This document shows, one piece after another, positions 43,161 to 63,991 of a stretch of DNA of 64,000 nt. The position numbers were made by a program, and so were the translations under genes. This stretch comes from a virus. Positions within the stretch are counted from its first letter, which is position 1, and each line of letters begins with the position of its first letter. The DNA lies in the IMG/VR virus record IMGVR_UViG_3300019886_000004, positions 64,001 through 128,000 of that record; one strand, written 5' to 3'. Below the pieces are notes generated by a model. That model was given only the letters and a program-made list of their open reading frames with translations. It had not been told where the DNA came from and did not search any database.

Positions 43161-44195
43161 TTATTTAAAAGAATTTATTAATTGTCTCCTTAGTAGATTT
43201 ACTTTAAGTAAGTCATACTTTCTTTTAACATACTCATGTAATCTCTCCCCGTCATCTAAAACTAAATTCATATTCTCCATTAGTGTTCTTGCCTTTGCAA
43301 ACCAATCGCTTGGTTTATCGCAGAAATATATTCCACTATTTTCCATTTCTTCATCTTCTAGATATGGAAATAATCTACTTGCCATTACAGGAGTTTTCAT
43401 ACAACCAGCTTCAATTATCTTTAAGTTTGACTTAAAGTAATTAAACTGATTATGTTCCAGTGGAGCAAGAGCTACATCAGTGTAATTATAATGTTCCATA
43501 TATCTATTTAGAGATAATGCATCTCTAGTAGAATAACTTGGACTAATCTTCATCACATCATTCATTTCATGAAGAGCTTTCTCCTTATAGTTACTATTAA
43601 AACCTGCTAATATAAACTTAGTCTTTATTTTAAAGTTTACATTCATATTAACCATAGTGAAAAAATCTTTTATAGACTCTAAGTCATATTGATGACTTGG
43701 TCCTCCAGAATACATAAATCTAAGTCGGCTTGCCTCCGTTTTCTCTGATTTAAACTGTTCATGACCAATTGGTAATGCGTTTGGTATAACTATACACTTT
43801 TTATTAATATCGCTTACCCTTCTAAATAATCTCTGGTTAGTTACTGTAACTATATCTGCATTGGTAATAGATTTTAAAATAAGATCTGCTATTTTATTTT
43901 TAGTCCAAGTCTCATAAAGATAATGATGTTCATATAGCTCCCAAATATCATCTATATCTACCCACATTTTAAATCCATACCTTTTCTTCATTTCCAGTAG
44001 AATATCTAAATCTACAGTTGGATGTCGATTAAAAATAACAAGATCTGTATTCTTAAACTCACCAGTAGTATATTGCTCATCATCAGTTTTATACTCTATG
44101 TGTTCACCAGACTCTAGTGGTAGATAACGAAAAGGGTTGTAAATCCTATGATAATCACTTGCGCTTTTAGGTCGGTGAAGTAATAGAATGTTCAT
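43161..44195 (-). CDS. GT-B fold glycosyltransferase (GT4-like)
   Basis: DIDD, ADIVTV, IPNA, GGPSH, DVALAPL...FNYFKSNLKIIEAG. Confidence 0.85.
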   Translation of the reverse strand: MNILLLHRPKSASDYHRIYNPFRYLPLESGEHIEYKTDDEQYTTGEFKNTDLVIFNRHPTVDLDILLEMKKRYGFKMWVDIDDIWELYEHHYLYETWTKNKIADLILKSITNADIVTVTNQRLFRRVSDINKKCIVIPNALPIGHEQFKSEKTEASRLRFMYSGGPSHQYDLESIKDFFTMVNMNVNFKIKTKFILAGFNSNYKEKALHEMNDVMKISPSYSTRDALSLNRYMEHYNYTDVALAPLEHNQFNYFKSNLKIIEAGCMKTPVMASRLFPYLEDEEMENSGIYFCDKPSDWFAKARTLMENMNLVLDDGERLHEYVKRKYDLLKVNLLRRQLINSFK

Positions 44196-44384: not shown

Positions 44385-44921
44385 TTATAAGTTTATTACT
44401 GATAAGTAAACTCTATTGTTCGTTCTTTTATTAATTACATTATATATGTCTTTCCATCCGTTTGTAGCTAGAAGTTTGCGCTGGTGTTCATTCTTATCCA
44501 CATCTGTGCATAAAAGTAAAGAATACCCAAGTGCCCTTCCAATGTCCTGTCTTAGTGTATTTAAAGTAGTGGCTATTCTTTTATTCCTAAATTCTGTATC
44601 TACAAATGACTTACAAGAAACAAGTATGGCACAACAATGTGGCATTCTATAAAGTTCAAATGAAGAAACAAACCTATCCCTACAGCAAAGTATGTAATTA
44701 CCTTCAGACCAATCATTTAACTCTTGTTTTTTATTCTCATCAAAAATAGGTATAATTCCGGTAATCTTCTTTTCAAATTTACATAATCTCTCATAAAGAC
44801 CAGTAGTAATGTGTGTACTATAAGGAATTTTTGTTATGAAGAAAGATATATCTTCTGGTTTTACATTTAGTAACCCGGCAATTAATTTACAATATTTATC
44901 TAATATTTCTTTTGTTTTCAT
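44385..44921 (-). CDS. 'CC'-motif GNAT-family protein (paralog 4)
   Basis: MPHCCAILV, VDTEFRNKRIAT (motif A), LLATNGW, INKRTNN. Confidence 0.65.
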   Translation of the reverse strand: MKTKEILDKYCKLIAGLLNVKPEDISFFITKIPYSTHITTGLYERLCKFEKKITGIIPIFDENKKQELNDWSEGNYILCCRDRFVSSFELYRMPHCCAILVSCKSFVDTEFRNKRIATTLNTLRQDIGRALGYSLLLCTDVDKNEHQRKLLATNGWKDIYNVINKRTNNRVYLSVINL

Positions 44922-46213: not shown

Positions 46214-47764
46214 ATGTCTACTAATTGTTCACCTATACAGAGTTGTATACCACAAGGTATTGTTAGTGACCCTTTATGTACTAGTCAAGCTTTATCGCTT
46301 GATTGTGACACAGGAGTACTTTCTCTTTCCAGTGCAAATTCTATTAACTTAGATTGTGCTGTTAAACTATTGGAGACAAAAACTATACTTAGTTCGGTAA
46401 CACTCACTGGCACAATACTTCAAATAATTTATTTAGGAGAAGATAGTGTTCCACAAGCAAAAAACGTAGATTTAAGTTCAATAGCTGGCACAGGAGGTAA
46501 TATTGGTGTTCAGAATAGTAACTCTATTCTTTTACACAATGGTAATAATACCTTAACTGCTACTTTAAACATTGATCCTGCTTCTAGTCTTCCAATAAGT
46601 TCTAGTCCATCTGGTGTTTTATTCGGTTGTTGCCCGGAGACTGTTAATATTACTAATAATACTAACACAATTCAATTGGCAGCTACAGGTTCTGTAGGTC
46701 ATATATTTACCGCTAATTTGAAGTATCAAAGTTCTGGTACCATACTACTATCCGATAGCTCAAATGGTCTTAGCGCAGCTGTAAAGTACTCTACAGATGC
46801 TAATAACGCTGTAGTAAGTGGTACAGATGGTGGAGTATATGTTGCATCTGCATCTTCTCAGTTAGCAAATCTTTCCAATAACGGATTTGTAACAACCGGA
46901 TCTGCTGGTACCCTTTTAGTTGGATCAGATTCTAAATTATATAGAATACCAGATCCTATTGCTGAAAGTCAAATAATTGGCAATAATACCAATACTGTTG
47001 CTTTAACAGTAAATGGACCCAATAATCACACAATTCAAGCTGGTGTTAGATATACTAATACTAATAGCGCTTTAATAAGTGAAACAGGCAGTGGTCTACA
47101 AGTAGATGTTAAATTAGATACTGTCACTCCTGGCAATGTTGGTTTTACTGAAACAATCAATGGTTTGGTTGGAAACATAACCGAAAGTTCGATACTTGGA
47201 GTTCAAAATTCAGTAGCTACTGTTCAGAATCCAATAACCAAGATATATGGTAATTTAAATAACGGTGCTGGTGGTTATGCTGTAGGTTTCCTAAGTCAAT
47301 ATGGATTGAAGACACCTAATTTCACAACTACACAAAGATTTGCCATACCAAGTACTGACTTGTATGACAGTCTTTTAGTATTTGATACTACTCTTAGACA
47401 ATATTATTGGTATGATGCTGTAACACCTGCTTGGATTCAAATTGGAGCAACTACGAGTCCTACTACACCAACTATTTACACGTGGTCTAATGCTGCAAAT
47501 ACTGGAAATTACACTATAAATGCAGCTAATGCTATAAGACTTTCTGATTTAACAGGTCAAGCAAATAGAAATATAGTATTACCGGCATCTCCTACTACTA
47601 TACAACAGTTGCTTATAATAAAAAATGTTAATTCAAGTGGTTTCAATTGGACATTTACAGGAACCACTGTGTTTGATATGAGCGATAGTGCGGTAACAAC
47701 GTTATCAAATAACACCACATACCAACTATCTTGGGATGGTGTAGCATATAATATAATAAATTAA
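46214..47764 (+). CDS. Putative fibre/decoration protein (no signal peptide), paralog of 49591
   Basis: S/T/N/G-rich beta repeats; Cys-rich N-terminus; TTTQR...LVFDTT...YYWYD fibre motif. Confidence 0.6.
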
Positions 47765-49398
47765 TGAATAAACTATACTTATTTCTACTTTTTTTAATCT
47801 TTTCCTTTAGTGTAAATGCTCAAGTAGGAAGAGATTTCTCTAATAGTATTAGTTTTTCTAGATGGGCTAAAGTTGGAGATGGTACCACAGATTACACAGG
47901 TGCATGGAATACTGCTATTAATTATATTATTTCTCATGATAAAGTTCTTGAGATACCAGAAGGAACTTATAATCTGGCTGGAATTTCAGATTTAGCTGGT
48001 ATTTTTGGTAATCCGGGTAGATTAAGAATACATGGTAGAGGACCATCCTCTATTTTGCTTGTTCCAGCTAAGACTTCTGCTCTTATAAATATTGCCAGCT
48101 CAGCTATTACAGCACTGGAAATAGATGGAATATACTTTAAAAGTACGCATGATACCACTAATGTTGGTAATGTTGCTTTATTGCTTCAAGGTACAGCTCC
48201 TAATTTAATAACCAATGTAAAAATAGCAAATTGCATATTTGAAGGTTTTACAACGGCTATCATTGGTAAAGGAGTTAGAGGTTTAGAAATATGTCATAAT
48301 ACATTCAAATCTCCTACTGGACATGACAATGCAACAACTACATCTAATCCAGCTATATTTATCCTTGCTGTGGACAACAATGCAACAGATTTAAATAAAA
48401 ATTGGAATATTCATGATAATTTCGTAGATGGTTATTCTGGAACGCTGTCCATTACTACTACTAAGACAGGTGGTCCAATGGATGGATTCTTCTATGGACA
48501 TGTAAGTGGATTAAATATTAACAATAATACAGTTCTAAATACAGGTCAAGAAGCAATTTATCCAAAAGTTAACATTTCTATAATTGATTCTGGTGTAACT
48601 TCTATAAAAAATAATATTATTTATTCATACATACCAACCGGAAGTAAGGATATGAACGGAGTGCTTATGAGATCTAATTACGCTATAAGAGCTGAGTCTC
48701 AACACTTATTAATAGAAGGTAATACCATACTAGGTGCAACAATCGGAATATGGTCTGATGCAACAAATGATGTCTTTCAATGCCGCGATTTAACAATAAA
48801 GGACAATCATATATTTTTTATAAGAGACACTACAAAAAGAGTACAGTATGGAACATATATTAGAGGAAATGCAAATGGATTTCGTTTTAAAAATGTTATA
48901 GTTAAAGGTAACATTTCTATTCTTGATAGTAGTTTTATATATAGTACATTTAGAAATATTGCATTAACATACGTAGATAGTGCTCAGGTTGAAGGCAATT
49001 CATTGAGTATTGTGAGGTTAACAAAATCAGGAGGAGGTACTCAAGGCATCTCTCTTTTATCTTCAGATAGTGCTTATATTGGAGTAAATATAATGAGAGG
49101 AGTAGATACTACCATAAACTCAGTTTCTTCTAGTTATGTAAATATACCTGTTGTAAGCGGAAGTGGAGGACCACCAACAGGATCTGCGGGTGGACGTCTT
49201 ACTGGTACTTATCCAAATCCATCTCTTGCTAATACAGCGGTAACTCCTGGAAGTTACACTAATGCAAATATAACGGTAGCACCAGATGGAACTATAAGCT
49301 CGGCAACTAATGGAACTGGAGGAGGTGGACTACTTTCAACATCAGCTGGTCAGCAGTGGCACCTAACATTTGATTCTGGAACTACAACGTGGTATTAA
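47764..49398 (+). CDS. Right-handed beta-helix (pectate-lyase-3-like) spike/depolymerase with Sec signal peptide
   Basis: GDGTTDYT...IPEGTY, parallel beta-helix repeats; C-terminal [11 protein letters not shown]...[12 protein letters not shown] fibre repeat; [19 protein letters not shown]|Q. Confidence 0.75.
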
Positions 49399-49408
49399 AA
49401 TATAAGAA

Positions 49409-49591
49409 ATGGCAGATCATCGTTCTATTTTATTGTGGCTCGGATCTAGTTTTACAACAGTAATTGGACTTATAACAGTGAATGATTTAGCAATTATGGT
49501 TGGTATAGCTGCAGGAATAGGTAGTTTAATATCAAGTGGAGTAAATATATACTTCAAATTTAAAAATAAAGGTAAAAAAGATATACAATAA
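49409..49591 (+). CDS. Small membrane protein (holin-like)
   Basis: 60 aa, two hydrophobic segments, basic C-terminus. Confidence 0.5.
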   Translation: MADHRSILLWLGSSFTTVIGLITVNDLAIMVGIAAGIGSLISSGVNIYFKFKNKGKKDIQ

Positions 49592-50952
49592 TGTCAATAC
49601 CGGTATCAAATTCATGCTGCGAACCACAAAGCTTAAAGCTAAATAACTCTACAGGTTATTTATCCATTTCCGATGGTAATAGTGTCTATTTAGGTACTAT
49701 AATAAAAGCATTAGGTATAAGTACACCTGTCATTGACTTCACTTTGGGTGGATTTATATTAACTTTGACTTATACAGATGCTGGTGGTGTTATACAACAT
49801 AAAAATGTAGACCTTTCAGCACTTGCTCAGGGTGGTAGTTTTAGTGTAGCAGATACTCCAACAACTCATTTAGTATATACTAATGGTGTTTTAACTGCAA
49901 ATGTAAACATATCAACTGCAACCAATAATTCTATATTAGCAAAAACAGATGGTATATGGGCTCCTAATTTTACTGAGACTATACTTACAACTACGGATAG
50001 TCCATCTATAGCCTTCACAACAAGTGGAGTAGATGGACATAATGTATCCGGATCAGTTAAGATATCTCAGACAGTAGGTAATAAAATTCAGATAGCTAGT
50101 GATGGATTATTAGTCAATGATATGACTACTTATTTGCTTGCTGGCACAAATATAACTTTAAGTGGTAGTGGTACTGCCTCATCTCCTTACATAATAACAG
50201 CAGGTGGTTTTTCTCAAGTACCTCTTTCTGTTAATGATAGTTCTTCCTTCCATTTTATTTCTTCTGGAACAAGCGGAATGACTTTAAGTGGTAATGTAAA
50301 AGTATCTGGATCTACAGCCAATGCGCTTATTGTTAATGCTGATGGTTTGTATGTACCGCAAGCAAGTACAAATAGTTATAGTGATGTTCAAGCAAGAGCA
50401 GCTATAAGCGCAATTGCACCTCTTTTGTATAATAATACAACTGGTGTAATGAGTTTAGCTCAAGCAACTAGTTCAACTAGTGGTTATCTTGCAAATGCAG
50501 ATTGGCTTACTTTTAATGGTAAGATATCTACAGGAGCTTCAATAGGAACAGCTAGCTCAGTACCTGTATATGCAGGACAAAATGGGACTACTTTAAACTT
50601 TAATGGTTTAAGAGCTGGCACAAATGTAACACTTAACCAGTCTGGTAATGATATAGTTATTAATGCATCCAGTAGTGGTGGAGGTACACCTTCAAGTGTA
50701 TTCTCTATAGACTTTATAGTTGGTGATGGTGGAGCATTAACTCCAACAGCTAATGCATCTCAGTTTAATCCTTCTTCAAATCCTTTAGCGGGTAAAACAA
50801 TACTTGGTTTTTGGGTAGAAGGTATTAAGACAGCTGGAGTTCCGAGAACTGGAGGAGAACTATATTTTACTTTTAGTCAATCGGTTGGAACTATAACTCT
50901 TACAAATGGAGTTTTTTCCTTAGATACATATTATTCAATACTTTATAAATAA
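49591..50952 (+). CDS. Putative fibre/decoration protein (no signal peptide), paralog of 46214
   Basis: Shared N-domain (LxLxxxTGxLSxSxxNSxxL...KNVDLS); internal repeats; SGYLANADWLTFNGK fibre motif. Confidence 0.6.
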   Translation: MSIPVSNSCCEPQSLKLNNSTGYLSISDGNSVYLGTIIKALGISTPVIDFTLGGFILTLTYTDAGGVIQHKNVDLSALAQGGSFSVADTPTTHLVYTNGVLTANVNISTATNNSILAKTDGIWAPNFTETILTTTDSPSIAFTTSGVDGHNVSGSVKISQTVGNKIQIASDGLLVNDMTTYLLAGTNITLSGSGTASSPYIITAGGFSQVPLSVNDSSSFHFISSGTSGMTLSGNVKVSGSTANALIVNADGLYVPQASTNSYSDVQARAAISAIAPLLYNNTTGVMSLAQATSSTSGYLANADWLTFNGKISTGASIGTASSVPVYAGQNGTTLNFNGLRAGTNVTLNQSGNDIVINASSSGGGTPSSVFSIDFIVGDGGALTPTANASQFNPSSNPLAGKTILGFWVEGIKTAGVPRTGGELYFTFSQSVGTITLTNGVFSLDTYYSILYK

Positions 50953-53900
50953 TGAAAAAATTATTTAAATTCATACTGCTCCTTACTTTACCTTTCCTAT
51001 TACCTAAGATATCTTTTGGACAAACAGGTGTTCAGTGGTTAGGTACTAAGGATAATGTTGTTGTTACTAGAAATATAGCAAGAGAAGATAGTGCTCATGA
51101 ATTTGCGCTAACTGATACTAGCAAGCACCCAGCACGTCCAGGTAGAATGATATCTTTTAATGGATCTCCTTACTGGTGGAATGGTATTTTCTGGTATAGA
51201 CTAAACGGTGATACTTCAACAGTACCTGGCCAAGTTAATGCTGACTGGACAGCTACCACTGGTGTGGCTCTTATTTTACATAAACCAACCTTTGCAACTG
51301 TTGCTACAACTGGATCATATACAGATTTAATAAATCCACCAACAATACCTGCAGCTCAGGTTGCTGTGGATTGGAACGCAGCTAGTGGTATAACTCATAT
51401 TTTAAATAAACCAAGAATAACAGATTCAATATGGAGAGTTATAGGTAAGGACTCTATACTATTCAGAATAGTTGGACCAGATGGAGTTGTTAGAAACTAT
51501 TCAATACTTGACTCCGCTGGTGGAGCAGGAGGAGGCGGAGGAGGGACTGTATTTAGCGTGGCAGCAGCAAATCTTACACCTTTATTCTCAACAAATGTTG
51601 CAACTGCAACAACTAATCCAAGCATTACTTTTACTTTAAATAACGCAGCAGCACATACATTCTTCGGAAATAACACTGGATCAACTGGACCACCTACATA
51701 CTCTACAATAGGTTTGGGAGATCTTCCAACTATTCCATTAACAAAAACAGATGTTACAAATGGTATTGGTATATCAGCTATAGTTAGTGGTGTGATAAAA
51801 GTAGATACAAGTGTAATAGGTTATCCTAAATTCATATCGATTTCTAGGAGTCCTAATACAGATAGTGTTTATTACACAGTTAAAACTAATGCAGCTACTA
51901 CTGTAAAGACACTTGGTTTAATAGATAGTGTGAGATATACTAGTATTGGACTTGCTGGAACTACTAATTTAGGTTATCAAACAGGACCTTCTAGTTTCTA
52001 TACTAGAAAAGTTAGACCAGGTACCAATACTGCTTTTACAGCAGATACTGATAGTACACTTGTAATAGCGAGTACATTAACTAATGTAATCAATACTTTA
52101 CAAGTAATAAATTCTGGTGCTGCTAGAAGTATTCAAGTTGGTACATTTTCTGGAAGACCTACTGGTAATACTGGAGATTTTTATGTGGTAAGTGACTCTA
52201 GCTATCGTGAAAGTTATAAAACTGCTAGTGGATGGATATGGATGACAGTAAGTCCTAAGCAACTAGCAGATAGTTTTGCTATTGTTGACACGGTAAAAAT
52301 AGCACATGTTGCTCCAATAAGTAACCTTTATACGAATAGTAATGGAACAACAATAGTTGATGTAGGTTCCAGACAGGGTTGGGGTATGTTAATAACCAAA
52401 TTAACTGACTCTAGTAATCAGTACATGGTTGATAGTAATGCCATAAAAGTCTTAGTTGGATCTGGAGTTACAAGTAGTGTTCAGAGTCAATTTTCTGTTT
52501 CGGGTAATGGCACATCAGCCAATAAACTACAGTTAGTTAATGACTCAGCTGCTGGACCTAATTATGCCTATTATCGAAATAGTGCTGGAAGGCTTGGTTG
52601 GTATCCAATAATTAATGGTCCATTAGCCACACCATCTAGTCCGGGTTTTCTTTCAGCTAATGATTATATAACTATACATACTAGAATAACAGCTATAAAT
52701 GCTCCAGGATCTGGAGATAGTTTAATGTATGCGGTTCCAACAGCTGACACTTTAGTCACTAAAAGAATAATAAAAGGTTATGGATTACTGGCCACAGTAA
52801 CTCAAAATAATATTAAATATGATGTAGATACAACTACATTAAAAGCTGTATTTGGAGCTGGTTCTGGAAGTGGATTAGGTACTGTTACTAGTTTTTCTAG
52901 TGGTAATCTAAATCCGTTATTTACTACCAGTGTAGCAACAGCTACAACTACTCCAACACAAACATTTACATTATCTAATGCTGGTCCTTATATGGTATTT
53001 GGAAATAATAGTGGATCAACAACTACTCCTTCTTACTTTACTCCTATTTTAGCTAGTCTTCTATATCAAAACCAAGGAACTACAACTACATTGCTTCATG
53101 GTAATGGGGTAGGTGCACCTAGTTGGTCTACTTTAAATTTAGCTAGTGAAGTATCAAATGTGTTAGGTACTACAAATGGTGGTACAAACATAAGTTCTTA
53201 TGCACTTGGAGATATCATTTATTCTAATGGTACTAATTCTCTAGCCAAATTAGCTGGTAATGTTACAACAGGCAAACAAGTACTCATTCAAACAGGTAAC
53301 GGATCTATATCTGCAGCGCCAGTTTGGGGTAATTTGACAAATGTTGATGTGGGATTGGGAAATGTTGAAAATACAGCATTATCTACTTGGTCTGGATCCA
53401 CTAATATAACAACATTAGGTACAATAGGTACAGGTGTATGGAATGGTACTATTATTGATGCTGTACGTGGTGGTACCGGACACGGTTCTTATACTATAGG
53501 TGATGTTCTAGTAGCTAATAGCACTACAACATTAGGTTTAGTAAGTGACGTAGCGGCAGGCAATGTATTTTTATCCGGAGGTGTAGGTGCACAACCTACT
53601 TATGGTAAAGTTAATCTTGGTACAATGATAACAGGTAATCTTCCTGTTGCTAACTTAAATAATGGTTCTGGAGCTAGTGCTTCAACAGTCTGGACAGGCA
53701 ATGGCACATGGCAACCCTTTAACACAACCCTTTACAGTGGTGATGGAACTCTTGCTAGCAATAGAACTGTTACAATGGCATCTAACTCTCTTACTTTTAC
53801 AGGAGGTAGTAAAGTCACTTTCAATCAGGCTGTTCAAATAGCCGATGGTACACAAGGTACTAGTAAAGTTTTTACTTCTGATGCTAGTGGTAATGGAGCG

Positions 53901-54275
53901 TGGGGACTAGTAATTGCTTCTGGTGTTTATACACCTACTATTACTAATTCAACAAATGTAGCATCTAGCACTTTTTCTAGTGCTTTTTATAAAAGAATTG
54001 GTAATGTAGTTGAGGTAACTATTACATTTGGTATGGTATGTACCACTGCTGGTGTTCCTACTACTATAACTTTTACAACACCACCTGGTTTGACTGGAGT
54101 TTGGTCGTCAAGCACATCATTCTTAGGTATTGGTAGTTATGGTGTTAATGGAGTATATACACCTGGTGTAGCTATATTTTCCGGAACCTCTGGTGGTATA
54201 GTAGCTTTTCAATGTAATGGTCTATCCGGTAGTTCTAATAGTGGATGTATTAAATTCACCTATTCACTTATATAA
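50952..54275 (+). CDS. Long tail-fibre-like protein with Sec signal peptide
   Basis: QVxxDWxAxxGxxxILxKP repeats, duplicated 55-aa GTVxS...TFTL repeat, DVGLGNVENT, GGTG repeats, VFTSDASGNGAW; MKKLFKFILLLTLPFLLPKISFG|Q. Confidence 0.7.
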   Translation: MKKLFKFILLLTLPFLLPKISFGQTGVQWLGTKDNVVVTRNIAREDSAHEFALTDTSKHPARPGRMISFNGSPYWWNGIFWYRLNGDTSTVPGQVNADWTATTGVALILHKPTFATVATTGSYTDLINPPTIPAAQVAVDWNAASGITHILNKPRITDSIWRVIGKDSILFRIVGPDGVVRNYSILDSAGGAGGGGGGTVFSVAAANLTPLFSTNVATATTNPSITFTLNNAAAHTFFGNNTGSTGPPTYSTIGLGDLPTIPLTKTDVTNGIGISAIVSGVIKVDTSVIGYPKFISISRSPNTDSVYYTVKTNAATTVKTLGLIDSVRYTSIGLAGTTNLGYQTGPSSFYTRKVRPGTNTAFTADTDSTLVIASTLTNVINTLQVINSGAARSIQVGTFSGRPTGNTGDFYVVSDSSYRESYKTASGWIWMTVSPKQLADSFAIVDTVKIAHVAPISNLYTNSNGTTIVDVGSRQGWGMLITKLTDSSNQYMVDSNAIKVLVGSGVTSSVQSQFSVSGNGTSANKLQLVNDSAAGPNYAYYRNSAGRLGWYPIINGPLATPSSPGFLSANDYITIHTRITAINAPGSGDSLMYAVPTADTLVTKRIIKGYGLLATVTQNNIKYDVDTTTLKAVFGAGSGSGLGTVTSFSSGNLNPLFTTSVATATTTPTQTFTLSNAGPYMVFGNNSGSTTTPSYFTPILASLLYQNQGTTTTLLHGNGVGAPSWSTLNLASEVSNVLGTTNGGTNISSYALGDIIYSNGTNSLAKLAGNVTTGKQVLIQTGNGSISAAPVWGNLTNVDVGLGNVENTALSTWSGSTNITTLGTIGTGVWNGTIIDAVRGGTGHGSYTIGDVLVANSTTTLGLVSDVAAGNVFLSGGVGAQPTYGKVNLGTMITGNLPVANLNNGSGASASTVWTGNGTWQPFNTTLYSGDGTLASNRTVTMASNSLTFTGGSKVTFNQAVQIADGTQGTSKVFTSDASGNGAWGLVIASGVYTPTITNSTNVASSTFSSAFYKRIGNVVEVTITFGMVCTTAGVPTTITFTTPPGLTGVWSSSTSFLGIGSYGVNGVYTPGVAIFSGTSGGIVAFQCNGLSGSSNSGCIKFTYSLI

Positions 54276-54283
54276 CAATTAGT

Positions 54284-55609
54284 ATGAAAAAATTATTATA
54301 TCTCTTTTTATTTTTAATACCTGTGTTTAGTTTCGGTCAATTACCAATACTAAATTTGAGTAATATGGTGCAACCAGGTAATACACCATCTATATCTATT
54401 GCTACAAGCTCTATAACATTTGCACCAATAGTATCTGGTAATAGTTCTGCGTCCCAGAATACAACAACTACAGCTGCTAATCTAACAAATCCCGGATCAA
54501 TAACTTCTCCAGGTACATGGTTAGAATTATCCTTTAATAATAGTACTCCCTGGTCATCTAGTTTAAGTCTTCCAATAACATCAGGTAACTGGACTGGAGC
54601 ACCGGTAGTATTTTATTTTAGAGTAACTTCCGTAGCTCCTGTTGGTCCTAACACTGGTAATATAACAGTAGCATCAAGTGGAGCATCACCTAAAACTATA
54701 GCTGTTACTGCAACAGTAACGTCTCCAGGAGCGTCTTTAAATGCTAGTCCGTTATCTTTTACAGGTATGTCTGCTGTGGCTGGTACTCAAGGATCAAGTG
54801 TTAACTATCTTTTAACCGGATCTAATTTGGGTGCAAATAATGTAACAGTAACTGCTCCAACTAATTTTTTAGTATCTAAAGATAATTCATCTTTTGCTAC
54901 TTCACAAGTAGTAACCCCTAGTAGTGGATCTGTTAATCAAACTATATATACAGCAATAGCTTCTACAGCCCTAGCTGGAGCAGTATCTGGTAATATATCA
55001 AATGTTGTTTCAGGTGCAAGTACAGTTAATGTATCAGTTTCAGGCGTTGTAAGTTCTCCAAGTTCAGCTGATAGTATAAATGTCAATTTTTGGAATAGTG
55101 CAAATGGTAATGTTAATCCGGCTAATGGTTGGAATAATATAGCTTTAATTGAGTCAGGTTCACCTCAAACAAGTGCTACTTTACTTAGAACTACAGGTGT
55201 CTCTTCTGGAGTGACTGTAACTATAAGCACTGTAGATCTTTTATTTGATAATTTTGATAATGGTGCTGGATATGGCAATGCCACCACTCTTCCTATACCA
55301 CCTGTTGTATGGAGAATAGAGGCTGTTTCTACCGCATCTGAAGCTGTTACCTTAACACTTAATGGATTAGTAGTTGGACATCATTATAACTTCTTGATAG
55401 GTTCTGGTGCTAACACAGGTACAGCAAGACCACAATCCTTTGCAATACCTGGTCAAACTACTCAAAATTTAGATGCTAGACAAAATATAAATACTTTAGT
55501 TTCATTTACTAGTATAACAGCAGGAGCTACTTCACTCGTACTTACTGTAACACCAACAAGTGGAGCTTCTACTTCACTTAATTTCTTCCAGTTAGTAGAT
55601 AATCATTAA
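54284..55609 (+). CDS. Exported Ig-like (beta-sandwich) repeat protein
   Basis: Signal peptide ...VFSFG|Q; two Ig-like repeats and a C-terminal INVNF... lectin/CBM-like domain. Confidence 0.65.
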   Translation: MKKLLYLFLFLIPVFSFGQLPILNLSNMVQPGNTPSISIATSSITFAPIVSGNSSASQNTTTTAANLTNPGSITSPGTWLELSFNNSTPWSSSLSLPITSGNWTGAPVVFYFRVTSVAPVGPNTGNITVASSGASPKTIAVTATVTSPGASLNASPLSFTGMSAVAGTQGSSVNYLLTGSNLGANNVTVTAPTNFLVSKDNSSFATSQVVTPSSGSVNQTIYTAIASTALAGAVSGNISNVVSGASTVNVSVSGVVSSPSSADSINVNFWNSANGNVNPANGWNNIALIESGSPQTSATLLRTTGVSSGVTVTISTVDLLFDNFDNGAGYGNATTLPIPPVVWRIEAVSTASEAVTLTLNGLVVGHHYNFLIGSGANTGTARPQSFAIPGQTTQNLDARQNINTLVSFTSITAGATSLVLTVTPTSGASTSLNFFQLVDNH

Positions 55610-55611
55610 TA

Positions 55612-58600
55612 ATGAGGAAATTACTATTTCTAATATTATCTTTTATAGGTTTTTATGCTAATGCTCAGGTAGAGTCTACAATCTCAGTGCCTTATACTAG
55701 TTCTGCTAGTCCTACTTTTCAGGCATTATTATATTTACCTTCTGATTATAATACTACAAGTGGTAATTATCCTTTGATAATTTTCTGCCATGGTTCTGGA
55801 GAATCATGTCCTCCTCTAAGTAATATTTATAATAGCTCAAGCGCTGGTGGACCACCTTATGAAATAGAACATGGAACCTGGCCAACTGATGGAGGTTTCA
55901 TAAACCCAAAAGATGGCCTAAAATATAAGTTTATAGTTGTTTCTCCTCAATCTGCTTGTAATAGCTGGTCTGCATCTGGAGATCAAATAGAGAACATAAA
56001 AATCTATTTAGTTACACACTATAGAATAGATATAAATAGAATTTACGGCACCGGTTTGTCTTCTGGTGGTGGTGGTATGATAGAAAATGTATCTCATCAA
56101 AACGGTAATGAAACAGGACCTGTCTTCACACCTACATATCCTTTTGCTGCTGTTGTTCCAATGAGCCCTGCTACTAATAGTCCTCAGCAATCATGGATGG
56201 CTACAATGGTTCATGACAGTACCTCTGGATGGTGGTTTGGTGACCAGTCTGGTGACACTTATGGAGAATGGGCTTTAAATGAAATTAATTTTGTCAATGC
56301 TATTAAAACAAACTATGCTAGATTAACAGGTCATCCTGGAACTAGTGGACAAAATAGCTTTACAACAGGTCATGGCCCTTGGAGACCATTTTATATTCCA
56401 ACATATACAGAAACATTTGTAGCTGTTGGTATGACTACACCAGCTACTATGAATATGTACCAGTGGTTTTTAACACAAACCAGACCAGGAGCAGTAGTAA
56501 CAACTCCAACAGCTAACGCTGGATCAAATCAAAATATAACATTACCAACAAACTCTGCTACGTTAAGTGGCTCAGGTACGCCAGGTAGTGGACATCTAAT
56601 AAGTTCGTATGGTTGGACGCAAATTTCTGGACCTAATACTGCTAATATTAATCCATCTAGTTCAACTACTACTGGATCTACCACTGTGAGTGGACTTATT
56701 GCTGGAACTTACGTTTTTCAATTAACAGTAACTAATAATATATCAGCTACTGCTACTAGTACTGTTTCAGTAACAGTTAATCCAGCGCCTGCTCCAACAG
56801 CCAACGCAGGACCAGATCGTACATTGGTCTTACCAACTACGACTTTAACATTAGATGGGTCCGCATCAAGTAATACTACTTCTTACAGTTGGACTTTCAT
56901 ATCCGGACCAGGCACTCCAACTATAGTTTCTCCTACTTCTGCTATAACAAATATAAATAATTTATCAGCAGTTGGAGTTTATATATTTCAGCTTTCTGTA
57001 AATGGTGGAGTAAGTACAGATAGAGCAAACGTAACAGTTAATGCTGCATCTACTTATCCCGCCTGTGGGACTGGAACTAAATATACTCCAGTACCAGATC
57101 CATCTGATTCAGGTGTGTTTATAGGTGTATCATCTGCTGCCAACTATAAACCTGGTGATACTATTGTTTTAAGTAGTGCTTTTAAATGGAGTTATTTCGA
57201 AATGGATGGATATCAAGGTAATCCTTCTTGTCCATTAGTAATTATAAATGATGTAGGTATAACTAAACTAAGAAAGTTTATACGTCTAGATGGTTGTACA
57301 TACATAAAAATAGTTGGAGGTGGTAATTCAGGTAATTTCTATGGTTTATTTATAGAATACGATCCTGTAAATATATGGCAAGGATTTGCTGGTATACAAC
57401 TAGTTGGAAGAACTTCTAACATAGAAGTAACAAGAGTATTTACACACCACACAGACATTGGTATAGTTTGTGAGAATAATGGTAGTTGTGATCCCAGTCA
57501 AAATTATCCTAATTGGATAATAGATTCAATTTTTATACATGATAACAAAATTGTTGGCACCTGGAATGAAGGGATGTATATTGGTAATACCGCTCCAGAC
57601 AATCAAGGTAATGATTTAAGACCAGTAGTTTGTCCGATTGGTGTTGGTGGTGCAGATAGCACTATTTATCCAGCTCCAGCTAAAAATGGATATACAAAAA
57701 TTTGGAACAATATAGTAGATACAACTGGGAGAGGTGGTATACAGTTAGCTAATGCAATAAATGGTCCTAGTGAGATATATAACAATACTGTCAGTCATAA
57801 TGGAATAAATGGAGATGATGCTCAAGGAGCAGCCATTAACTTAGGATTATACACACAAGTGTATGTTCATGACAATACAATAAGTAATACTTATACATGG
57901 GGTATATCTAGTATAGGATCGGGAGCTACTAATAAGCCTGTTAGACTAGAGAATAATCATATTGATAGTTCGGGTTTCTTAAGAACTTTTGATCTATCTC
58001 AAACTAGTAGAGATCATTATAATCCTGCTACAGAACCAAGTTTTATTGATAGTTTACCTTGGCCTTATCCTTTATTTATAGATACAAGACCTCGCCATTA
58101 TACTACAGATTCACCACATCCTGGTACAGCAATAGTTGGACAAGATAGTACTCAATTCTGGATAAAAAATAATGTAGTAGGATTATTTAAAGCAGTAACA
58201 AGAACTGATGGTGGGGCAACTGCAGCTATTCAAATACAAGATGACTTCCTAGGTATACAAAAATTTGGTAATATAATTTGTAACAATACAAATAAGAATG
58301 GTAGTCCTGCTACAATATTTGTAGATAATAGTAATGGTACAATAAATTATTCTACAAACTGTTCTGCTCCTCCTACAGTAAATGCTGGTACAGATCAGTT
58401 CCTGTCTAGTGGATCAACTAGTGTTAACTTGGTTGGCACAGCGGTTCCAACAAGTGGAGCAACTATAACACAAGTTACATGGACACAACTTTCTGGTAGT
58501 AATCCGGTTTCGATAGGTTCTCTACATTCTCTTAATACAATAGCAACTGGACTTACACCATCAGGAGTTTATACGTTTAGATTATTTGCACTAGATAGTA

Positions 58601-58695
58601 ATAACAATACTTCCAGTGATGACATAATAGTTGTAGTAGCTAGTGGAGCTCCGGCTCAATATCTTTTATTTAGACGAAAAACATACATACAATAA
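55612..58695 (+). CDS. Exported alpha/beta-hydrolase + PKD repeats + beta-helix protein
   Basis: Signal ...FYANA|Q; YLPSDY...YPLIIFCHGSGE, TGLSSGG nucleophile elbow, GHGPW; three PTA/VNAG...WT..SG...YxFxL PKD repeats; beta-helix. Confidence 0.8.
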   Translation: MRKLLFLILSFIGFYANAQVESTISVPYTSSASPTFQALLYLPSDYNTTSGNYPLIIFCHGSGESCPPLSNIYNSSSAGGPPYEIEHGTWPTDGGFINPKDGLKYKFIVVSPQSACNSWSASGDQIENIKIYLVTHYRIDINRIYGTGLSSGGGGMIENVSHQNGNETGPVFTPTYPFAAVVPMSPATNSPQQSWMATMVHDSTSGWWFGDQSGDTYGEWALNEINFVNAIKTNYARLTGHPGTSGQNSFTTGHGPWRPFYIPTYTETFVAVGMTTPATMNMYQWFLTQTRPGAVVTTPTANAGSNQNITLPTNSATLSGSGTPGSGHLISSYGWTQISGPNTANINPSSSTTTGSTTVSGLIAGTYVFQLTVTNNISATATSTVSVTVNPAPAPTANAGPDRTLVLPTTTLTLDGSASSNTTSYSWTFISGPGTPTIVSPTSAITNINNLSAVGVYIFQLSVNGGVSTDRANVTVNAASTYPACGTGTKYTPVPDPSDSGVFIGVSSAANYKPGDTIVLSSAFKWSYFEMDGYQGNPSCPLVIINDVGITKLRKFIRLDGCTYIKIVGGGNSGNFYGLFIEYDPVNIWQGFAGIQLVGRTSNIEVTRVFTHHTDIGIVCENNGSCDPSQNYPNWIIDSIFIHDNKIVGTWNEGMYIGNTAPDNQGNDLRPVVCPIGVGGADSTIYPAPAKNGYTKIWNNIVDTTGRGGIQLANAINGPSEIYNNTVSHNGINGDDAQGAAINLGLYTQVYVHDNTISNTYTWGISSIGSGATNKPVRLENNHIDSSGFLRTFDLSQTSRDHYNPATEPSFIDSLPWPYPLFIDTRPRHYTTDSPHPGTAIVGQDSTQFWIKNNVVGLFKAVTRTDGGATAAIQIQDDFLGIQKFGNIICNNTNKNGSPATIFVDNSNGTINYSTNCSAPPTVNAGTDQFLSSGSTSVNLVGTAVPTSGATITQVTWTQLSGSNPVSIGSLHSLNTIATGLTPSGVYTFRLFALDSNNNTSSDDIIVVVASGAPAQYLLFRRKTYIQ

Positions 58696-60182
58696 TGACT
58701 ATATATAAACTAGTTACAGATAGACTTCTAGATAAGTTACAAAGAATGGTGAATAATCTTTACTTTATAATGGGTAAAGCTAATGGTGTTGCTACTCTTG
58801 ATAGTACTGGAAAGGTACCTACTTCTCAAATACCAAGTGGTGGAGGAGGTGGAGTAACATCTTTTAATGCTAGAACCGGAGTTGTTGTTCCAGCTTCTAG
58901 TGACTATACGTTTGCTCAGATAGCAACCACTCCAACTACTGTGACTGGTTATGGTATAACTGATGCGGCTACTTTAACAGGTACTCAAACGTTAACTAAT
59001 AAGACTATATCTGGAGCATCTAATACGTTATCTAATATAGCAGAATCTTCAGTAACAAATCTAACTACTGACTTAGCAGCTAAACAAGCCACTATTACTT
59101 TAACTACTACTGGTACAAGTGGAGCAGCAACACTGGTTGGAGCTACTTTAAATGTACCAAACTATGCAACAGGTGGTGGAACTCCTGGTGGATCTACTAC
59201 GCAACTACAATATAATAATGCTGGTGCCTTTGGTGGAACTAGTGGTGCCACCGCAACCGCTACCGTGGTAACTCTAGTGGCTCCTGTCTTAGGCACGCCT
59301 ACTTCAGGTACACTGACTAGTTGTACAGGACTTCCAATTTCAACTGGAGTTAGCGGACTTGCAGCAGGTGTTGCTACTTTTTTAGCTACTCCTACAAGTG
59401 CTAACTTAGCGACTGCTGTGACTAATGAAACTGGAAGTGGTCTTTTAGTATTTGCTACTTCTCCGGTGCTAACCACTCCTAATATTGGAGTAGCTACCGC
59501 TACTACGGTAAATAATGTAACTATAACTGCGCCTGCTACCTCTGCTACCTTAACATTGGTTCAGGGATCAAGTTTAATAACTGCTGGTGCTTTTGCAACT
59601 ACTCTTGCGGCCACTGCTGCTACAACCACTACTATACCTCCCATATCAAGCACTTTGGTTGGAATGGTGGCTAGTGGAACCGCTGCTGCTCAGGCAACAT
59701 TAGATATTAACTTTAGTTCTTATTTTAGTCAATTTTCAGTTATTGAGATACAACTAAATAGTGTGATACTAGCTACAGATAATGTGGATATGTATTGTAG
59801 ATTAAGTATAGATGGAACTACTTTCGATTCTGGAGCAGGAGCATATTCTTGGGCTCTTACCTTCGGTAAATCAGATGCTTCTTCCGGTGGAGATGGTAGT
59901 AATTCTGCTACTCAAATAGTATTAAATGGAACAGGATCTCATGTAGCAGGAAGTGCAACTATTCCATTAAATGTCACTGTAAAAATCTTTAATCCTGGTG
60001 TATCAACTTTTAGACCAATGGTTGGGTTTTCTACTCACTATTATAATGGAACTACAGCAAATATACTTTCGGCCATAGGGACCGGATCTAGAAATACTAA
60101 TCAAGTAACGAAAGGAATAAGATTCTTAACAAGTTCAGGTAATATAACATCTGCAAATTACAGAGTTATAGGATATCCATAA
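58695..60182 (+). CDS. Tail fibre protein (no signal peptide)
   Basis: GKANGVATLDSTGKVP, VTSFNARTG, PTTVTGYGITDA, TQTLTNKTI, PGGSTTQLQYNNAGAFGG. Confidence 0.75.
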   Translation: MTIYKLVTDRLLDKLQRMVNNLYFIMGKANGVATLDSTGKVPTSQIPSGGGGGVTSFNARTGVVVPASSDYTFAQIATTPTTVTGYGITDAATLTGTQTLTNKTISGASNTLSNIAESSVTNLTTDLAAKQATITLTTTGTSGAATLVGATLNVPNYATGGGTPGGSTTQLQYNNAGAFGGTSGATATATVVTLVAPVLGTPTSGTLTSCTGLPISTGVSGLAAGVATFLATPTSANLATAVTNETGSGLLVFATSPVLTTPNIGVATATTVNNVTITAPATSATLTLVQGSSLITAGAFATTLAATAATTTTIPPISSTLVGMVASGTAAAQATLDINFSSYFSQFSVIEIQLNSVILATDNVDMYCRLSIDGTTFDSGAGAYSWALTFGKSDASSGGDGSNSATQIVLNGTGSHVAGSATIPLNVTVKIFNPGVSTFRPMVGFSTHYYNGTTANILSAIGTGSRNTNQVTKGIRFLTSSGNITSANYRVIGYP

Positions 60183-60203: not shown

Positions 60204-60548
60204 ATGTTACAAAAAATCGAATCGTTTTTTTCAGGGAATAAGGTGTTTATCCTTGGTAGTCTATCTGCCATTGGAGTTGCTTTACAGCAATATTTAACAG
60301 GAACAATAGATTGGAAAGTAATTGGTTTTGCAATTGTCATTGCTGTTCTATCTTATCTTGCCAAGAGTCTTAGTGGAACAGTTGCTTCCATATTAGGTAT
60401 ACTTGGTGGTGTTGCAACTACAGTTTCTCAAGTAGCATCAGGTGGAAAAATAGGGTGGAGTGCACTTATACTTAGCACTGTCATCTCTATAATCGGAGTA
60501 GTAACAAGCTCAGCAACCAGTACAAAAATAACTAGTCCCATAAGTTAA
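60204..60548 (+). CDS. Putative holin
   Basis: 114 aa, about 4 hydrophobic helices, directly upstream of the endolysin. Confidence 0.6.
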   Translation: MLQKIESFFSGNKVFILGSLSAIGVALQQYLTGTIDWKVIGFAIVIAVLSYLAKSLSGTVASILGILGGVATTVSQVASGGKIGWSALILSTVISIIGVVTSSATSTKITSPIS

Positions 60549-60623: not shown

Positions 60624-61064
60624 ATGAAAATTATGGAAATTACATTTGCAGACACAGTAATTATAAGGCAATTTGAAGGCTATATACCACATGTATATAA
60701 GGACCAAATTGGTGTACTAACTTGTTGCTGGGGATTAACTGGACCTAGCTTAAGAGAAGGAACGACATTTACTCAAGACGAATGTACAGAGATGTTCATG
60801 AAAAGAATAAATGATTTTTCTTCTAAACTAAATAATCTCATAAAAACTCAAGTAACCAAAAATCAATACATTGCTCTTTTGAGTTTAGCGTTTAATATTG
60901 GAGAAGGCGCATTTGGATCTAGTACTCTCCTTAAGAAGGTAAATGTAGATCCTAATGATAAAACTATCGAAGCACAATTTAAACTTTGGATTCATGCTGG
61001 TGGCAAAGTATTAGATGATTTAGTTAAAAGACGTGCTCAAGAAGCTGCACTTTATTTTAGTTAA
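60624..61064 (+). CDS. Endolysin, GH24 phage lysozyme
   Basis: FEG...YKDQIGVLT (E-8x-D-5x-T), ALLSLAFNIG, STLLKKVN, LVKRRAQE. Confidence 0.92.
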   Translation: MKIMEITFADTVIIRQFEGYIPHVYKDQIGVLTCCWGLTGPSLREGTTFTQDECTEMFMKRINDFSSKLNNLIKTQVTKNQYIALLSLAFNIGEGAFGSSTLLKKVNVDPNDKTIEAQFKLWIHAGGKVLDDLVKRRAQEAALYFS

Positions 61065-61456
61065 TTCACTAGCCTATAAATGTGACTAACTTTGTTAATT
61101 GAATCCTGTAATAATATTTGCAATCCAAGCTTATGTAGAATGTTTATAAGATTCTGAGCTTGTTCAGTGATTCTGAAATTAGCCTCATGCACACCATTCC
61201 ATGTAGAATATTGGAATGGTTTCGTTATAGTAAGACCTTTGTAAACAGTATTTCCAGATGTACTATACAACCATCCTAAATATTTGGTTGTATCGCTTCC
61301 AAATCTTATGGCATATAACTTAGTATAGTCACAGTATACAATTTGAAACTTCTCTTTAGCCTCGCTTGCATAGGCTCCATAATCTGTTATAGTATCTTTC
61401 TTTTGTGAATATCCTTTCAAACCAACTAAAAGGAGTAATAAGATTAGTATTTTCAT
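61061..61456 (-). CDS. Small exported protein
   Basis: MKILILLLLLVGLKGYS|Q signal peptide. Confidence 0.65.
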   Translation of the reverse strand: MKILILLLLLVGLKGYSQKKDTITDYGAYASEAKEKFQIVYCDYTKLYAIRFGSDTTKYLGWLYSTSGNTVYKGLTITKPFQYSTWNGVHEANFRITEQAQNLINILHKLGLQILLQDSINKVSHIYRLVN

Positions 61457-61896
61457 TGTATGTAATGATTTGCTTTTCTGATTGAGTCTTTTGCTTTTCT
61501 ATCATAGTGCTTATAACTAACTATAACATGTATCATACTATCTGCTTGAGCTTGTGTCTTAAAGTTTAAACCTTTTGGACAGTATGGTGTGATAGTATAT
61601 TTATTTATTCTTGTAGTATAGTTTTGTGTTTTAAAGCTATCTACTTTAATACCTACGTATCCTACTTCTGTGGTTTTAGTAGTAAAATTCCTACAGTAAT
61701 CTTTAATTACATACCTGAAAGGAACAGCTAAACTATCTTTCTCAACTACAAACATATGATTTTTATCTGAAAAAAAGTTGTAAAAATTATGACTATAATA
61801 ATGTTGTAAAACTTTACCAGACGTGTCATGTTGATGTCTTTGAGCATTTATCTTAGTAAAACCAAGACATAATATAAAAAACAGTATATATTTCAT
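61453..61896 (-). CDS. Small exported protein
   Basis: MKYILFFILCLGFTKINA|Q signal peptide. Confidence 0.65.
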   Translation of the reverse strand: MKYILFFILCLGFTKINAQRHQHDTSGKVLQHYYSHNFYNFFSDKNHMFVVEKDSLAVPFRYVIKDYCRNFTTKTTEVGYVGIKVDSFKTQNYTTRINKYTITPYCPKGLNFKTQAQADSMIHVIVSYKHYDRKAKDSIRKANHYIQ

Positions 61897-62327: not shown

Positions 62328-63341
62328 TTAATCCATTTCTGTAATATATGATTTATTTATTTTTGCAAATTTATCTAGCAACACCTGATGTTGATCATAA
62401 TCACCACATTGTGGAGTTAAATAAAGAATGTAGGGTTGAAAGGAACCAGACATACAATGAAGATTACTTCTAATGGTCACTAGTTCGGACAGAAGATTAC
62501 CATAGGTTCTAAAATTATAACAGTACTTGTCACGTAGTGTTTTAGGTTCTGGGGGAGTGTATCTTTTTTCTGTAATAGATAACATTTCAGCCAACATATC
62601 ACTATACTCAAACCGACTTACATCTATAATGTATAATAGATTTTCCTTTGCTTTTCTGTCACTCAAATGTTCCCATAATTGCCACATTGTCTTTTCTCCA
62701 ATCCATTTTTTATCTTCTGGAATAGCGATGTGTTCACTTAAAGAACTATAACTATTAAAAGTAAAAATACTACTTTTACCACAATACAACCAAGTTCCAT
62801 CTGAGTGAAAATTTTTACCTTGAAAGGTCCAGTGATACTTATATCTTTTGGGATCTCCTTTGTTATTTCCAATATTTTCACCTACATATGTAAAACCTAG
62901 TAAATTTAGTATGTCAACATCACCGAATTCAAGACATCCTTTTCCTCTTTCACTACCATGGTCTTCTTTAGCTAAGAAGTCATAAATCCCTCTATCGATC
63001 CACATATATGGCCACTCTTTACATTCATCATAATTGTGCATTTTTTCCCGAATAGGATCTAACTCTTTTCTATGGTATGTACAACCACCATCTATGATAA
63101 AAGAAGTAAACTCATCTATACTAACACCAAAGTGCTCTTCTATAAGTTCGGTGTTTTTGTCCTTCTCAATCTGCTCGATAGATCCATAGTCATCATACTC
63201 ACCAAAGATTGGTAGTGTTGCCGGTAGATAAGGTAGATATGTTTCATAATCTTTCCTCTTTTTAAGGGGTAGTAATACACATTTTTGTCCACTAGTGATA
63301 CTTATATTACTTATACTGCAATATACAGAAAAGCTTCCCAT
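62328..63341 (-). CDS. Hypothetical phage protein
   Basis: 337-aa ORF; CSISNISI...LPIFGEYDDYG. Confidence 0.7.
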   Translation of the reverse strand: MGSFSVYCSISNISITSGQKCVLLPLKKRKDYETYLPYLPATLPIFGEYDDYGSIEQIEKDKNTELIEEHFGVSIDEFTSFIIDGGCTYHRKELDPIREKMHNYDECKEWPYMWIDRGIYDFLAKEDHGSERGKGCLEFGDVDILNLLGFTYVGENIGNNKGDPKRYKYHWTFQGKNFHSDGTWLYCGKSSIFTFNSYSSLSEHIAIPEDKKWIGEKTMWQLWEHLSDRKAKENLLYIIDVSRFEYSDMLAEMLSITEKRYTPPEPKTLRDKYCYNFRTYGNLLSELVTIRSNLHCMSGSFQPYILYLTPQCGDYDQHQVLLDKFAKINKSYITEMD

Positions 63342-63991
63342 TATATTATACTTTTATTTATGAAGAAATAAGTACCCACAGCAATAACTATACCCATAAC
63401 TATGATCCAAATCAGACGTAGTCTTGACGTGGACTTTTGTTCTGTATACTTGAGTATGTACTGATTAGTAGAGTCTCTAGACATCTGTAATTGATCTGTA
63501 AGACCTTTTATCTGACTATCGTTGACTACTATCTTTGTTATTGTATCATGTATGTAAGCGTACTGTCTTAATAGAATAGATTTAGGTGGATGGTTCTTAA
63601 TCCAATTGGCGCAGTTACTACCGCTGTCGAGATTTAGCCAGAGTGTGTCAGTAGTTGGAAAAATAGGAATCGTACCGGAAAAAAAGCCTGGATCGATTTG
63701 ATTGGGAGCATTATCCCATGGATGATAAAAATGGAGTCCGGAGATACTATCCCAATAAACAGGAGGATTTTCCCAGGCCGAACTAATTGTATCTATAGAT
63801 CCCCATGTTGTATCGGACTTGCTTTGTTTAATAGTTGTATCAATTTTCTGCGGATGTTTGACAGCCATCCAGTCTTGTAGTTTTCCAGAAAATTGATTAT
63901 TCTTTGAATCCTTTTTATCGATTCTCGGTACCGTGATACAGGACGATACGAGAACCATACTAAAAAGGGATAGAATCTTGAACTTGTTCAT
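63341..63991 (-). CDS. Lipoprotein with C-terminal TM helix (unimolecular-spanin-like)
   Basis: Lipobox LVSS|C at residue 18; coiled coil then LIWIIVMGIVIAVGTYFFI TM. Confidence 0.55.
   Translation of the reverse strand: MNKFKILSLFSMVLVSSCITVPRIDKKDSKNNQFSGKLQDWMAVKHPQKIDTTIKQSKSDTTWGSIDTISSAWENPPVYWDSISGLHFYHPWDNAPNQIDPGFFSGTIPIFPTTDTLWLNLDSGSNCANWIKNHPPKSILLRQYAYIHDTITKIVVNDSQIKGLTDQLQMSRDSTNQYILKYTEQKSTSRLRLIWIIVMGIVIAVGTYFFINKSII

Follow-up and report, generated by a model that had tools for sequence, protein, structure and literature searches.

Why should the exported proteins of a tailed phage be loaded with a motif at which bacteria of one phylum attach O-linked glycans? This question is raised by a stretch of 64,000 nucleotides (the window) that comprises bases 64001-128000 of the IMG/VR virus record IMGVR_UViG_3300019886_000004. 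The record has a length of 147,916 bp, is rated complete by CheckV and has a G+C content of about 30%. Judged by two giant open reading frames (ORFs) and its replication block, it represents a crAss-like phage; a DNA-level match to cultured phages was not found. An earlier note on the window had described its exported proteins, foremost the one encoded from position 50952, as dense in the tripeptide D-(S/T)-(A/I/L/V/M/T) and had proposed that export may serve to coat phage fibres with host glycans. This tripeptide is termed strict sequon below, and proteins are named by the lower of their coordinates in the window.

Throughout the phylum Bacteroidota, non-cytoplasmic proteins contain the motif in excess, its Ser/Thr is "generally nearly fully substituted", engineered motifs become glycosylated, and glycosylation also works across species (PMC12871550). 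According to PMC8550257, export is needed for glycosylation and mutagenesis placed glycan attachment at D-(S/T)-(A/I/L/V/M/T); the same source reports an extended motif for Tannerella forsythia, in which S, C, G or F is also permitted at the third position. In Porphyromonas gingivalis, glycosylation affects most of the proteins exposed to the periplasm, but not the abundant proteins of the surface (PMC8729774). Given these three studies, a phage protein that is exported in such a cell and bears sequons should therefore be glycosylated as well.

To separate exported from other proteins, 184 non-overlapping ORFs were called in the whole record and their N-termini were evaluated by a rule that demanded a basic n-region and a hydrophobic core at least 10 residues long, with charged residues excluded from the core and acidic ones from the part preceding it; the hits were then inspected. 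Twelve ORFs had a canonical Sec or lipoprotein leader with n-, h- and c-regions and a small residue at position -1, seven of them in the window and five outside, and two of the 12 contained a lipobox. Most of the 12 leaders ended with a small residue followed by Gln, and Gln occupied position +1 in six of the seven signal-bearing proteins of the window, matching the Q-rule described for signal peptides of Bacteroidetes (PMC5837995). A further 167 ORFs were classified as signal-less, and five with ambiguous hydrophobic N-termini, containing 0-1 sequons, were kept out of both classes. With expected counts derived from within-protein shuffles, the mature parts of the 12 exported proteins (3844 amino acids) contained 45 strict sequons versus 13.5 expected (z 9.1, 3.3-fold), whereas the signal-less ORFs contained 90 versus 105 expected. 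At least one strict sequon was present in 11 of the 12 exported proteins and at least two in 10. Asp was part of a strict sequon in 45 of 160 cases (28%) in the exported set, but only in 90 of 2472 cases (3.6%) in the others, corresponding to an odds ratio of 10.4 (p 7e-24). The excess persisted when the fibre-like protein was left out (33 versus 9.2 expected). The sequon density claimed for the exported proteins of the window thus extends to the whole genome, is stronger than had been stated, and does not vanish when the content of Ser and Thr is corrected for.

Within the window, clear enrichment was found for the fibre-like protein 50952 (50952..54275, + strand, 1107 amino acids, signal ending in SFG/Q, the slash marking the predicted cleavage site), which has 12 strict sequons versus 4.3 expected (p<0.001), and for three small proteins encoded on the - strand. 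These are 63341 (63341..63991, 216 amino acids, lipobox VSS/C and a C-terminal transmembrane helix; 7 versus 1.0, p<0.0005), the most sequon-dense protein of the window; 61061 (61061..61456, 131 amino acids, GYS/Q; 3 versus 0.3, p 0.001), which has three of its five Asp residues in strict sequons; and 61453 (61453..61896, 147 amino acids, INA/Q; 3 versus 0.4, p 0.003), which has two additional sites of the extended motif. Two large exported proteins encoded on the + strand were only marginal when taken alone, namely 47764 (47764..49398, 544 amino acids, VNA/Q, with a tail-fibre-type C-terminal motif; 5 versus 2.2, p 0.06) and the host-like 55612 (55612..58695, 1027 amino acids, ANA/Q, with an esterase-like region and three PKD domains; 7 versus 3.6, p 0.06). 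The Asp-poor protein 54284 (54284..55609, + strand, 441 amino acids, SFG/Q, 7 Asp) was not enriched (1 versus 0.9). Three signal-less proteins with fibre modules, all encoded on the + strand of the same gene block, served as internal controls: 46214 (46214..47764, 516 amino acids; 5 versus 2.4, p 0.08), 49591 (49591..50952, 453 amino acids; 0 versus 2.1) and 58695 (58695..60182, 495 amino acids; 1 versus 1.9), which together gave 6 sequons versus 6.2 expected. The strongest excess was observed for the eight small exported ORFs of the genome (20 versus 2.6, 7.7-fold). All strict counts given in the earlier note for these proteins were reproduced; 46214, which it had singled out as a signal-less exception, does have five sequons, but this number is not significant.

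The excess was specific for the complete motif. Replacement of D by E, N, G, K or Q, the reversed tripeptide and [ST]D gave no enrichment in the exported set, and D[ST] with a third residue outside the permitted set occurred 23 times versus 20 expected. At the third position, T, I, A, V and L were preferred. The sequons are encoded by 13 different codon pairs, of which GAT-AGT is the commonest, and the ratio of Ser to Thr is 25:20; therefore, the bias is located at the protein level. An artefact at the DNA level, such as GANTC inside GAT-TCN, was ruled out by the same 13 codon pairs and by Thr sequons being as frequent as Ser sequons.

A purely structural role, in which D-S/T plus a hydrophobic residue would mark the start of beta-strands in fibre or other beta-rich folds, would explain the motif without glycans. 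Many sequons of 50952 do lie in x-D-S/T-hydrophobic-x-hydrophobic contexts, and hydrophobic residues are, as a general trend, mildly over-represented near [ST]D in all genomes analyzed. We nevertheless regard this explanation as very improbable, since the operon's own signal-less fibre genes lack enrichment, 120 signal-less proteins that have only the fibre repeat in common with 50952 contain sequons at 0.59-fold the expected number, and no excess was seen for the reversed motif or the E/N/Q/K/G controls. Furthermore, the strongest signal came from unrelated small exported proteins, and the effect tracks the phylum, being absent in a gammaproteobacterial control.

This control was part of a calibration in which the same script was applied to 20-kb samples taken at even intervals from four bacterial genomes reached via homologues of 55612. 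These samples replaced an earlier benchmark on loci centred on the 55612 homologues, which was biased (about 1.3-fold in both classes). Sequons in exported proteins were enriched 2.51-fold in a metagenome-assembled genome of the Chitinophagia (130 versus 51.7, z 12), 1.55-fold in a Chitinophagaceae isolate (z 4.9) and 1.26-fold in Allomuricauda, a member of the marine Flavobacteriia, compared to 0.90-fold in the gammaproteobacterium Aliikangiella. The signal-less classes of the four samples ranged from 1.0- to 1.37-fold, values to which some mis-called starts probably contribute. The calibration reproduces the published enrichment of the motif in non-cytoplasmic proteins of Bacteroidota, and the sequon bias of the exported phage proteins matches or exceeds this host-type bias. 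The phage probably infects a host of the family Chitinophagaceae (Bacteroidota), given that 55612 has its closest relatives among secreted proteins of Puia and further Chitinophagaceae; the crAss-like gene content, the Q-rule signals and the motif excess in the two Chitinophagia genomes are additional, indirect hints at a Bacteroidota host with the glycosylation system.

In our view, these data are quite probably explained by O-glycosylation of the exported phage proteins by the host, with sequons being maintained by selection as in periplasmic proteins of the host itself. After export via the Sec or the lipoprotein route, signal peptidase would cleave the precursor. The host machinery would assemble a glycan on undecaprenyl phosphate, flip it to the periplasm and transfer it there to the Ser or Thr of D-(S/T)-(A/I/L/V/M/T). 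Selection would then keep and re-create sequons in the phage proteins, as in host proteins exposed to the periplasm, and the most likely benefit would be stability or protease resistance. Since the bias is shared by exported Chitinophagia proteins (1.55-2.5-fold), the sequons give the impression of a general adaptation to this periplasm rather than of the reason for export.

Selection on the sequons is also suggested by two protein families, whose members are not phylogenetically independent of each other. Sixteen homologues of 63341 were identified (38-55% identity), all of which keep the lipobox and the transmembrane helix and contain 5-11 strict sequons each versus about 1 expected. Four sequons (D51-T, D60-T, D149-T and D173-S) are invariant and belong to 32 invariant columns of the family. 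The linker is variable in length and barely alignable; in the 17 sequences it contains 58 sequons versus 7.2 expected, with 1-7 per member. The persistence of linker sequons where the alignment fails indicates that sequons are being replaced and not merely retained. An IMG/VR scan with the 63341 alignment yielded no matches, and a metagenome scan for relatives yielded two loci. The architecture of 63341 resembles that of unimolecular spanins of the phage T1 gp11 type, and both ends are conserved in the 17 sequences. The protein may be a spanin, although the family search revealed no sequence similarity to known spanins; its gene is located 2.3 kb from that of the endolysin, on the opposite strand.

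For 50952, the hand count of the earlier note proved exact: 31 of its 39 Asp residues are located in amino acids 1-630 (DNA 50952-52860), 20 of these are followed by Ser or Thr, and 12 are part of strict sequons (positions 46, 158, 167, 187, 304, 325, 367, 446, 531, 589, 599 and 626), whereas the last approximately 470 amino acids contain eight Asp, none followed by Ser or Thr, and are sequon-free. Among the 20 D[ST] sites, 18 conform to the extended T. forsythia motif. The protein consists of the signal, a conserved anchor of about 60 amino acids at the N-terminus of the mature part, DW...NKP fibre repeats and C-terminal fibre motifs. A leader ending in Q and 11-15 sequons (versus about 4.5 expected) are present in each of its five full-length homologues (43-65% identity). 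In all six family members, seven sequons are strict, their third residue varying only within AILVMT (DSI/DSV, DSA/DST). The N-terminal approximately 600 residues of the six proteins hold 10-14 strict sequons versus about 3 expected, whereas in the C-terminal 470-550 residues (window 52860-54275 and homologues P0020-P0024) only 6 of 81 Asp residues are followed by Ser or Thr, compared to about 22 expected from the content of these residues. For six related proteins, this pattern is suggestive of sequon loading in the proximal and avoidance in the distal part. If glycans are attached, the N-terminal 600 residues would be heavily glycosylated and the C-terminal fibre or tip part glycan-free. Glu is nearly absent (0.3-0.9%) over the full length of the 50952-family proteins.

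To follow the anchor, the mature N-terminal 166 residues of 50952 were used for a library-wide HMMER search. The anchor, i.e., the first approximately 60 mature residues, was found only directly behind an N-terminus of leader length. The proteins recovered in this way have 603-1342 amino acids, varied C-termini and 10-14 sequons (z 3-6.5); over all representatives with the anchor, a signal is present in every case and the number of sequons is 10-17. The DW...NKP repeats (window 51150-51420, amino acids 65-135 of 50952, approximately) match annotated tail fibre and baseplate proteins; at E<=1e-3, this repeat was found in 6031 cluster representatives, many of them with 5-24 copies. The IMG/VR loci L002-L013 have nothing but the fibre repeat in common with 50952; their exported ORFs were at 1.2-fold, which is not significant, and these loci do not serve as a control. 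Likewise, no sequon enrichment was observed in 69 proteins with the short motif of 47764; the only full-length homologue of 47764 is signal-bearing and has 5 sequons versus 3.0 expected. An AlphaFold2 model of amino acids 25-640 of 50952, based on an alignment of 15 sequences, was unusable (mean predicted local distance difference test score 37.5).

The exported genes might alternatively have been captured from Bacteroidota hosts and have kept a host-like sequon density by ancestry only, with no selection in the phage. Protein 55612 would fit such an origin. Its best relatives (L015, L016 and L017; 1179-1657 amino acids) are signal-bearing proteins of Puia and other Chitinophagaceae with 45-51% identity, which have 18-28 strict sequons versus 3.5-7.2 expected and are thus 4-5-fold enriched, whereas the phage copy is enriched about 2-fold; in the more distant homologues L018 and L019, strict sequons are absent. 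As a general explanation, however, ancestry is improbable. Members of the 63341 and 50952 families came exclusively from phage-like contigs of metagenomes, invariant sequons are kept at 38-65% identity, sequons turn over in an unalignable linker, and the 7.7-fold enrichment of the eight small exported proteins is above every host average measured.

The block at 46214-60182 comprises seven tightly packed genes of one orientation with several 1-nucleotide overlaps, which pair signal-less with signal-bearing genes (46214/47764, 49591/50952 and 55612/58695); the signal-less proteins 46214 and 49591 have a common N-terminal domain of about 155 amino acids (34% identity, E 1e-16). Downstream of the block follow a small protein with several hydrophobic segments (60204-60548, + strand, 114 amino acids), a putative holin, and a GH24 endolysin (60624-61064, + strand; PF00959 at 1e-34, PHROG 7 endolysin at 2e-37). 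The tail fibre genes of crAss001 (gp22-gp26) occupy the same position directly upstream of the lysis genes. The block thus resembles tail fibre loci in its fibre-type modules, its gene position and the modularity of an anchor combined with a variable C-terminus. It departs from characterised fibres, which are not exported, in that a conserved signal of the cleavable type is present on 47764, 50952, 54284 and 55612.

In its strongest form, the proposal made for this locus holds that export exists to glycosylate virion fibres, which would receive a coat of host glycans for shielding, stability or mimicry and would join the particles when lysis opens the inner membrane. The fibre position of the exported genes, their translational coupling to signal-less fibre genes via the 1-nucleotide overlaps, the tail-fibre repeats, and the anchor and variable tip of the 50952 family, which are typical of receptor-binding proteins, are consistent with it, as is the contrast between the sequon-rich N-terminal and the D[ST]-depleted C-terminal part of 50952. 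A precedent for signal-bearing virion proteins is provided by gp085-gp087 of Cellulophaga phage phi18:3 (NC_021794 32891-38583; our locus L123), which are also large and encoded just upstream of lysis genes, have canonical signals (SQ/V, AQ/T and AQ/T) and are annotated as virion proteins from tandem mass spectrometry. Particles of Bacteroidota phages can therefore yield proteins with a leader. The three proteins are, however, sequon-poor, with one sequon each (3 versus 9.7 expected), and belong to a member of the Pachyviridae with a marine Flavobacteriia host. Being signal-bearing yet sequon-poor, they indicate that export and sequon loading are separable and that export does not imply a glycan coat.

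Further observations also argue against glycan coating as the purpose of export. In crAss001 (MH675552) and phi14:2 (NC_021806), which belong to the same phage order, gp22-gp26 and the structural proteins are encoded at the same place by the lysis cassette but have neither signals nor a sequon excess. The only sequon-rich proteins that stand out in these two phages are crAss001 gp27 (25093-25695) and phi14:2 g076 (69230-69808), which are signal-anchored, lysis-adjacent and have 4 strict sequons versus 0.4-0.6 expected. In the phage studied here, small exported proteins other than fibres have the strongest excess (in the window 63341, 61061 and 61453, and elsewhere in the genome four further ORFs), and clear enrichment among the four large exported fibre-module proteins is restricted to the 50952 family. 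Exported host proteins show the same bias. To our knowledge, the particles of tailed phages are assembled in the cytoplasm in every characterised case. We therefore consider it rather unlikely that export exists for the glycosylation of fibres. Of the proposal in the earlier note, the motif excess stood, proving specific, conserved in relatives and confined to signal-bearing proteins, whereas export serving to coat the fibres did not stand as formulated.

A more detailed scenario for the fibre-like proteins can be offered only tentatively. In this crAss-like soil lineage, part of the host-recognition apparatus might mature outside the cytoplasm, receiving a pyroglutamate cap after Sec export and host O-glycans on its proximal approximately 600 residues, while the distal tip is left sequon-free. 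The anchor might dock on particles or on the co-translated signal-less partners after the holin has breached the inner membrane, and released virions would then carry host-type glycans.

Several points weigh against glycosylation by the host as the explanation of the sequon excess as such. The attachment of glycans and the identity of the host are both deduced from sequence, and the signal peptides were assigned by our own heuristic and inspection rather than by SignalP. The enrichment is uneven, with none for 54284 and marginal values for 47764 and 55612 individually, and part of the sequon density of 55612 may have been inherited from a host ancestor. Finally, phi18:3 shows that sequon loading is not universal among exported phage proteins.

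With respect to known systems, the exported phage proteins have the same signals and the same motif as the substrates of general O-glycosylation in Bacteroides fragilis, T. forsythia, P. gingivalis and Flavobacterium johnsoniae, with an excess that is likewise limited to non-cytoplasmic proteins (PMC12871550, PMC8550257, PMC8729774). They differ in being encoded by a lytic-type crAss-like phage and in that several are fibre- or lysis-like. Phages of P. gingivalis encode proteins with the same Bacteroidetes-type signals and Gln at +1, which were interpreted by the authors as an adaptation to the secretion system (PMC10367356); these proteins are small, have no assigned function and are not fibre-like, the phages are temperate, and glycosylation is not mentioned in that paper. 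We found no published report of host O-glycosylation of exported tailed-phage proteins, and phages are never mentioned in the review on general O-glycosylation (PMC12871550). In papers that mention crAss-like phages together with O-glycosylation, phage glycoproteins were not the subject of any title or abstract, one of these papers naming O-glycosylation solely as a host trait, and the library searched contained no paper joining Crassvirales with signal peptides. Glycans on structural proteins of tailed phages as such have a parallel. Freeman and colleagues reportedly described in 2023 that mycobacteriophage virions are glycosylated by phage-encoded glycosyltransferases. That route is cytoplasmic, relies on the phage's own enzymes and acts on capsid and tail-tube proteins, whereas here glycosylation would be periplasmic, depend on the host system and need export.

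Against this background, the contribution of the present analysis is the whole-genome comparison of exported and other proteins, the bacterial calibration, the evidence from two families for invariant sequons and for others that turn over, the two-part pattern of the fibre-like proteins and the counter-example of phi18:3. If the sequons are used, tailed-phage proteins would be decorated by the general glycosylation pathway of the host and would represent a substrate class that has so far been unconsidered. If this applied to the fibre-like proteins, parts required for host recognition would mature in the periplasm, at odds with the textbook view of all-cytoplasmic assembly. Host glycosylation mutants should alter phage fitness, and effects on virion stability, antigenicity and host range of the Bacteroidota phages that microbiome work employs would be possible. 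The signal-linked sequon excess could also help to assign uncultured phages to Bacteroidota hosts and to flag exported proteins.

Searches against Pfam, PHROGs and NCBIfam provided a family name for almost none of the exported or fibre-block proteins. Protein 55612 matched PF22352 at 7e-49, its matches to esterases being weak. None of the four large exported proteins matched the Pfam and NCBIfam families for C-terminal sorting domains of the type IX secretion system; C-termini resembling these tails were recognized by eye, not by profile, in the host homologues of 55612 and are absent from the phage copy. In the related 148.6-kb metagenomic phage L055, about 22 sequons were counted versus about 5 expected, its split homologue of 55612 included. 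Its counterpart of 54284 (441 amino acids, signal-bearing) has 1 sequon versus 1.1 expected. The 55612 counterpart of L055 (L055:14695-17774, - strand) is split into a signal-bearing ORF of 131 amino acids and an ORF of 836 amino acids, the latter with 12 sequons versus 2.5 expected; a frameshift, an assembly error or an element lying in between could have caused the split. Immediately upstream of the fibre block lies a glycosyltransferase-like ORF (43161-44195, - strand), whose match to Glyco_trans_1_4 (24.4 bits) is below the cut-off of 27, and it is adjoined by a weakly GNAT-like ORF at 44385-44921 (- strand). A weak GT2-like match was found elsewhere in the phage genome (G000:C1:20797-20958).

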